Shown in pieces: positions 37,823 through 38,541 of a DNA stretch of 64,000 nucleotides; position 1 is the first letter of the stretch, and the number at the start of each line of letters is the position of its first letter. The notes under the pieces were generated by a model. It was not told the DNA's origin and searched no databases. It saw only the letters and a program-made list of their open reading frames with translations. Both the position numbers and the translations under genes were made by a program. Where the stretch lies: the NCBI RefSeq assembly GCF_988242995.1, contig NZ_OZ547043.1; one strand, 5' to 3'.

Positions 37823-38541
37823 ATGCAGCTAACAGGAACTCTTGTGGTCATCGGTCCTTTTATCAACGCAAGTGCAGTATTACTGGGTGGCGTTCTCGGT
37901 GCACTCCTTAGTCAACGCTTACCGGAACGTATCCGCGTCTCCATGACATCAATTTTTGGTCTGGCATCGCTGGGGATTGGTATTTTACTGGTGGTGAAAT
38001 GCGCCAACCTTCCGGCGATGGTTTTAGCAACCTTACTCGGTGCATTAATCGGCGAAATGTGTCTGCTGGAAAAAGGCGTCAATACCGCGGTCACCAAAGC
38101 ACAAAATCTGTTTCGCCACTCACGTAAGAAGCCAGCGCATGAATCTTTTATTCAGAATTATGTCGCGATTATTGTCCTGTTTTGCGCCAGCGGCACCGGG
38201 ATCTTCGGGGCGATGAACGAAGGGATGACCGGCGACCCGAGTATTTTAATCGCCAAGTCATTTCTCGATTTCTTTACGGCGATGATCTTCGCCTGCTCGT
38301 TGGGTATTGCGGTGTCGGTAATTAGTATCCCATTACTGATACGCTGGCGTGGGCTGCCGCGCTGATATTACCGCTGACCACACCGTCGATGATGGCAGAC
38401 TTCAGCGCCGTAGGCGGTTTATTGCTGCTGGCAACCGGATTACGCATCTGTGGCATTAAAATGTTCCCGGTGGTCAACATGCTTCCAGCACTCCTTCTGG
38501 CAATGCCGCTTTCCGCCGCCTGGACCGCCTGGTTTGCCTGA
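37823..38541 (+). pseudogene. yqgA: yqgA (DUF554 membrane protein) split across two reading frames near 38330-38345
   Basis: Frame 1 (180 aa) stops at 38365; membrane-protein-like sequence continues in the -1 frame (LAWAAALILPLTTPSMMADFSAVGGLLLLATGLRICGIK...WFA) to TGA at 38541. Confidence 0.6.

Follow-up and report, generated by a model that had tools for sequence, protein, structure and literature searches.

A shared 10-bp deletion frameshifts yqgA beside the pheV island of Escherichia coli and very probably makes it a pseudogene

The yqgA gene found in the window (the whole stretch of DNA analysed, 64,000 nucleotides of contig NZ_OZ547043.1, RefSeq assembly GCF_988242995.1) lacks 10 bp of the intact alleles and is, with high confidence, a genuine frameshift pseudogene whose deletion would have a single origin, whose product would be non-functional and which would have been spread by recombination at pheV. 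The deleted gene is a heritable, lineage-shared allele and not a mutation private to this strain, and the frameshift is already known, being flagged in RefSeq for related strains. In the mechanism that we propose, the 10-bp deletion (CATCCAGTTA) would have had a single origin, on an intact yqgA allele that is common, and the resulting -1 shift leads to a TGA at 38363-38365 and to a 173-aa product predicted to be non-functional. That the 66 downstream codons are still intact would be due solely to the recent date of the deletion, and the short yqgA-pheV segment would have moved between lineages by homologous recombination at the pheV hotspot.

The earlier note on this DNA had described a yqgA frame stopping at 38365 with the rest of the protein continued in the -1 frame through 38541, an organization borne out by the list of open reading frames and by a split match to the DUF554 family. 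The whole pseudogene lies on the plus strand at 37844..38541 and measures 698 nt, against 708 nt for the intact gene, which is also the extent of the feature labelled 'frameshifted' by RefSeq in relatives. These coordinates were transferred via 100% identical alignments from PGAP-annotated relatives, the strains with a PGAP yqgA being LH10-b-1, AST20, SMS-3-5, H1827/12, JNE070796, PCN033, KP63, LR882057, GN03590 and PRO_A-1490. As in RefSeq, translation is taken to start at the GTG in 37844; an in-frame ATG is present at 37823, and the open reading frame listed at 37823..38365 (plus strand) encodes 180 aa with the C-terminal end ...SIPLLIRWRGLPR*. The 5' piece (37844..38365, plus strand) consists of 166 native residues, identical to residues 1-166 of the intact allele WP_000234532.1, followed by the out-of-frame heptapeptide RWRGLPR and the premature TGA at 38363-38365. 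The 3' piece (38341..38541, plus strand) is in the -1 frame and encodes YqgA residues 170-235 (TLAWAAALILPL...AWTAWFA) up to the native stop at 38539-38541. Beyond the premature stop this frame reads TLAWAAALILPLTTPSMMADFSAVGG...AWTAWFA, and it is represented in the list by an open reading frame at 38389..38541 (MMADFSAVGG...AWTAWFA*).

Both pieces were recognized by the Pfam DUF554 profile (PF04474) above its gathering cut-off of 25.1 bits: the 5' piece over profile positions 1-158 of 220 (E=4e-46, 157.7 bits) and the 3' piece over positions 163-219 (E=1.2e-15, 58.1 bits). The K-12 YqgA protein gives an unbroken match over positions 1-219, whereas the window holds no single uninterrupted reading frame of about 235 aa spanning DUF554, the split falling at 38340/38341. 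The assignment to YqgA is also supported by orthologous position, between speC/yqgH and pheV: the gene occupies the same locus (speC-yqgH-yqgA-pheV) as K-12 yqgA (b2966), which codes for a DUF554/PF04474 inner-membrane protein of 235 aa, and it shares both the start and the native stop of the K-12 gene. Outside the lesion, the encoded residues differ from the K-12 protein by two substitutions only, I72M and A84T. The differences from K-12 are the 10-bp deletion with its 173-aa product and a DNA allele that is 4.3% divergent. It had been conceded beforehand that the claim would fall if K-12 yqgA ended at the same stop and the downstream frame were unrelated to it. This is not what was found, K-12 yqgA being a single 708-nt open reading frame whose residues 170-235 are encoded by the downstream frame of the window.

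A small indel had been predicted near 38330-38345. When the DNA was aligned with K-12 AG100 and the nearest intact allele (PRO_A-1429-6M-A), the result agreed with this prediction and displayed one gap only, CATCCAGTTA, the 10 bp being absent between bases 38340 and 38341 (38340..38341, plus strand). The indel is thus of 10 bp and not of 1-2 bp, and the direction of the shift is -1, as had been claimed. Lost with these bases are the last position of codon 166, the whole of codons 167-169 (Ile-Gln-Leu) and the opening position of codon 170; the new codon 166 reads ATA, so that Ile is retained, and RWRGLPR and the stop follow, the TGA being reached 8 codons on in the shifted frame. The position of the gap is unambiguous, as the flanking bases allow no sliding. 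Inspection of the alignment by eye revealed no direct repeat or microhomology around the deleted 10-mer, and at the deletion site there is neither a homopolymer of at least 5 bases nor a tandem or simple-sequence repeat, the 10-mer itself being unique. When CATCCAGTTA was put back in silico, a 708-nt open reading frame of 235 aa was recovered, and at least 1000 contigs in public data carry this restored YqgA allele. The uninterrupted 235-aa allele WP_000234532.1, found for example in MRSN346595 and PRO_A-1429-6M-A, is separated from the window over 979 bp by a single SNP and the ten bases and, judged from this alignment, probably represents the parental allele. Compared with intact orthologues, yqgA therefore carries an indel that is not a multiple of three and that is followed by a premature stop, as expected of a frameshift pseudogene.

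The predicted product of the deleted gene has 173 aa, that is 166 native residues plus RWRGLPR, and the last 69 of the 235 residues are gone, together with about 28% of the DUF554 profile. The break sits in a hydrophobic stretch (residues 148-183), and two more such segments, at 190-208 and 210-228, are lost. From the extent of this truncation, loss of function is the most likely outcome, even if the 166-residue N-terminal fragment could keep some activity. The gene is dispensable, as yqgA is split by an independent IS1203 insertion in the O111:H8 strain 7-32 9A and because a transposon mutant in yqgA is viable in Nissle 1917 (PMC4366286). A search of PDB sequences retrieved no solved relative of K-12 YqgA, and the literature on YqgA yielded biofilm phenotypes only. 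A promoter scan of 37400-38950 detected no sigma-70-like promoter.

Among the alternatives, the one that survives best, although it is quite unlikely, is that the gene is split yet functional, the 173-aa fragment acting alone or together with a C-terminal peptide initiated at the ATG in 38389. The native part of the fragment does span Pfam positions 1-158 of 220, and the allele persists in many strains. On the other hand, the break within a hydrophobic segment and the removal of the two that follow speak against a working membrane protein, no Shine-Dalgarno-like sequence precedes the ATG in 38389, and a null allele that is neutral, in a gene that can be dispensed with, would be expected to persist just as well. 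The reading as a null allele is thus preferred: the deleted yqgA should be treated as a real pseudogene whose annotation is not to be "repaired", and the strains that carry it as natural yqgA nulls usable for studying the function of DUF554 proteins. For biology at large, this ordinary frameshift pseudogene is of little importance.

The distribution of the deletion was analysed in 5,426 complete E. coli genomes. An 821-bp yqgA query gave matches in 5,424 of them, and 43 genomes matched at 99% identity or more across 821 bases; among the matches listed, the remainder span 831 bases, except for AF14 (822) and the IS-split O111:H8 copy. An 80-bp junction query was found at 100% identity in 43 of the 5,426 genomes, while 4,066 others aligned with a 10-bp gap. 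The junction is a specific marker carried by roughly 0.8% of the complete genomes. Five of the 43 carriers are derivatives of a single isolate, EC0026B. The surrounding yqgA allele is 100% identical to that of the window in 19 carriers. The carriers include SMS-3-5, PCN033, the blood isolate H1827/12, O166:H15 outbreak strains from Japan and the ST484 isolate EC0026B (sequence type from PMC10569738), O166:H15 being associated with ST349 in the literature; they were recovered by many projects from wastewater, poultry and humans, including human carriage, and their countries of origin are Japan, India, Tanzania, the USA, Switzerland and Norway. In each of the ten carriers inspected, yqgA is flagged "frameshifted" by RefSeq/PGAP. 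The 'frameshifted' genes of SMS-3-5 (ECSMS35_RS15685), PCN033, H1827/12 and the O166:H15 JNE strains have the identical junction and are 99.6-100% identical to the window over 821 bp, whereas these strains have upstream core haplotypes other than that of the window and, in some cases, different pheV islands. The exact 173-aa truncated YqgA has been called on 576 public contigs, and its 180-aa form with the ATG start on 5 more. In AF14, yqgA has an unrelated in-frame 9-bp deletion in which one TAW of the C-terminal AAWTAWFA is gone, and the gene is annotated as intact (232 aa).

These data bear directly on the choice, left open by the earlier note, between pseudogenisation of a core gene and a sequencing error, of which the first is retained and the second discarded. 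An artefact of sequencing or assembly, with an intact yqgA in the source strain, has a negligible probability. Frameshifts in core genes are admittedly a classic sign of consensus errors in long reads, and the support for the window itself is indirect, coming from its identity with many independent assemblies. The lesion is however not the 1-2 bp homopolymer indel, unshared by related assemblies, that such errors would leave, but a gap of ten non-repetitive bases in a site devoid of homopolymers of 5 or more. Many laboratories have produced the 43 complete genomes in which the identical junction recurs, hybrid and short-read-polished assemblies included, such as those of the O166:H15 outbreak strains (PMC12613895). 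The identical truncated protein is called on the 576 contigs, and 19 of the 43 genomes share the surrounding allele with the window without a difference.

Recoding, whether by programmed frameshifting or otherwise, which would yield a near-full-length YqgA minus 3-4 residues, is just as improbable as the artefact. It could be evoked by the perfect preservation of the downstream frame, which ribosomes would re-enter by slipping -1 at any point of 38341-38362. Nevertheless, no slippery heptamer of the X_XXY_YYZ type occurs anywhere in the first open reading frame, and the split is not conserved among orthologues but derived, because yqgA is continuous in each of the six loci inspected in non-carriers and the ten bases are retained by 4,066 genomes. 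The preserved 3' frame would be explained by a young deletion (the segment varies by no more than 4 SNPs, or 0.4%, between carriers) and not by selection. Least credible of all is a phase-variable switch in which an indel would toggle at a repeat tract: nothing beyond the reported link of yqgA to biofilm formation speaks for it, the site offers neither a repeat tract of variable copy number nor microhomology beside the unique 10-mer, the same junction without intermediate lengths is seen in 43 of 43 carriers, and the length states at yqgA are 821 and 831 bp only, apart from the 9-bp deletion of AF14. Three candidates, namely recoding, a homopolymer error and an independently translated 3' piece, were rejected, the checks for a heptamer, a homopolymer and a Shine-Dalgarno sequence being negative.

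The spread of the pseudogene was approached by local divergence contrasts between the window and nine carriers (ten sequences). In the 19 kb upstream, divergence ranges from 0.01% within a background group to about 1.0-2.6% between groups, and three types of background were distinguished: SMS-3-5/PCN033/KP63/GN03590, a K-12-like type (the window, JNE070796, LR882057 and PRO_A-1490) and H1827/12. The yqgA-pheV segment (37744-38722) has only 0-4 SNPs per 979 bp among the same carriers. Behind pheV, at least three types of island are encountered: a CP4-like/Ag43 island behind the integrase WP_001697401.1 or WP_001218889.1, an alpha-galactosidase sugar-utilisation island (SMS-3-5 and LH10-b-1) and a microcin H47/M island (LR882057). 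Conversely, E500002 combines the H1827/12 background with another integrase and with an intact yqgA allele of a third kind. Because a near-identical deleted allele is found in diverged upstream cores and beside differing pheV islands, the segment appears to have been spread by recombination, and the simplest reading of these comparisons is one deletion on the WP_000234532.1 allele followed by transfer of the yqgA-pheV segment between lineages.

Recombination around tRNA-linked islands is an established phenomenon in E. coli, where homologous recombination reportedly spreads both the islands and their flanks. The present case resembles it by the sharp breakpoints near pheV and by a near-identical core segment in diverged backgrounds, and differs from the general case in that the core gene riding on the segment is a null allele. 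The deleted allele in diverged backgrounds illustrates how recombination shuffles the core flank of pheV.

The window itself is a mosaic. From 1 to about 21,700 it is of the H1827/12 / EC0026B group (100.0% identity over 1-17,000 and 0 differences over 17,780-21,670), and from about 22,000 to 37,743 it is of the K-12 and O166:H15 JNE070796 type, with 0-2 differences per 500 bp in most of these ~15.5 kb. The allele that is 4.3% different from K-12 begins at 37,744. The breakpoint next to yqgA was located in the interval 36941..37743 (no strand), with K-12-type sequence on the left and the divergent allele from 37744, and a second sharp recombination breakpoint is visible at 21,700-22,200. The best matches to the window are accordingly the H1827/12 / EC0026B (ST484) group for 1-17 kb and the O166:H15 / AST group for 22-64 kb, and the exact succession of H1827/12 type, JNE/K-12 type and yqgA allele occurs in no complete genome of the collection. 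The yqgA region (37,744-38,640) is deeply polymorphic, with at least three allele classes (K-12, E500002 and window types) about 4% apart, compared with about 0.4-2.5% in the adjoining 19 kb of core. In the 821-bp yqgA search, 3,131 genomes were at 90-95% identity and 2,250 at 95-99%.

A more speculative proposal, which we regard as improbable, is that the yqgA null was moved repeatedly between lineages (SMS-3-5/PCN033-, ST484- and O166:H15-like) since the loss of this inner-membrane protein, which is associated with biofilms, might be advantageous in some enteroaggregative or extra-intestinal niches. If true, it would amount to a small adaptive loss-of-function sweep, hitch-hiking or co-selected with pheV islands; nothing here demonstrates adaptation.

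The position of yqgA at the border of the island, announced in the earlier note, is confirmed by the features that follow it. The island integration site, pheV (tRNA-Phe, anticodon GAA), was located at 38647..38722 on the plus strand with ARAGORN and the Rfam tRNA family, and the first gene of the island, a P4-type tyrosine integrase 100% identical to WP_001697401.1, at 38920..40185 (plus strand). On the other side, the upstream core neighbour is speC (ornithine decarboxylase; 35311..37446, minus strand), placed by the list of open reading frames, in which it runs to 37506, and by annotation transfer from a relative; the small gene yqgH (~37608-37691, minus strand) was also positioned from the annotation of a relative. 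Between pheV and the integrase, at 38,733-38,756 and directly 3' of pheV, there is a strong terminator-like hairpin (10 pairs, then a T run), presumably the terminator of the tRNA.

The pheV island of the window (38,723-64,000) is collinear with that of AST20, in which an additional IS100 is inserted at a point corresponding to ~40,696-40,700 of the window. Its genes were mapped by coordinates from the AST20 annotation between 38,920 and ~58,500. In this part, the integrase is accompanied by an IS110 fragment, an IS66 element, two zinc-ribbon proteins and an inovirus Gp2-like protein, and then by a Hha fragment, a GTPase, the Ag43 autotransporter (~51,278-54,124), a YeeR-like protein, IrmA, DUF905 and DUF932 proteins. 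The resemblance to AST20 drops to only 96% between ~58,580 and 64,000, and the gene content there, deduced from collinearity, would comprise an antirestriction protein, YeeS/YeeT, the YeeU/CbtA toxin-antitoxin pair and a terminal IS66 (ISEc22-like). The island extends past the end of the window and, in relatives, leads into the kps capsule locus. Three further RNA families were matched by Rfam in the window: the Hfq-binding sRNA STnc490 at 7025-7148 on the minus strand (146 bits, above the gathering score), naRNA4/CssrE at 26755-26825 on the minus strand (60.9 bits, barely over the threshold) and an 'IS102 RNA' at 51023-51259 on the plus strand, above the gathering score and directly upstream of the Ag43 gene.
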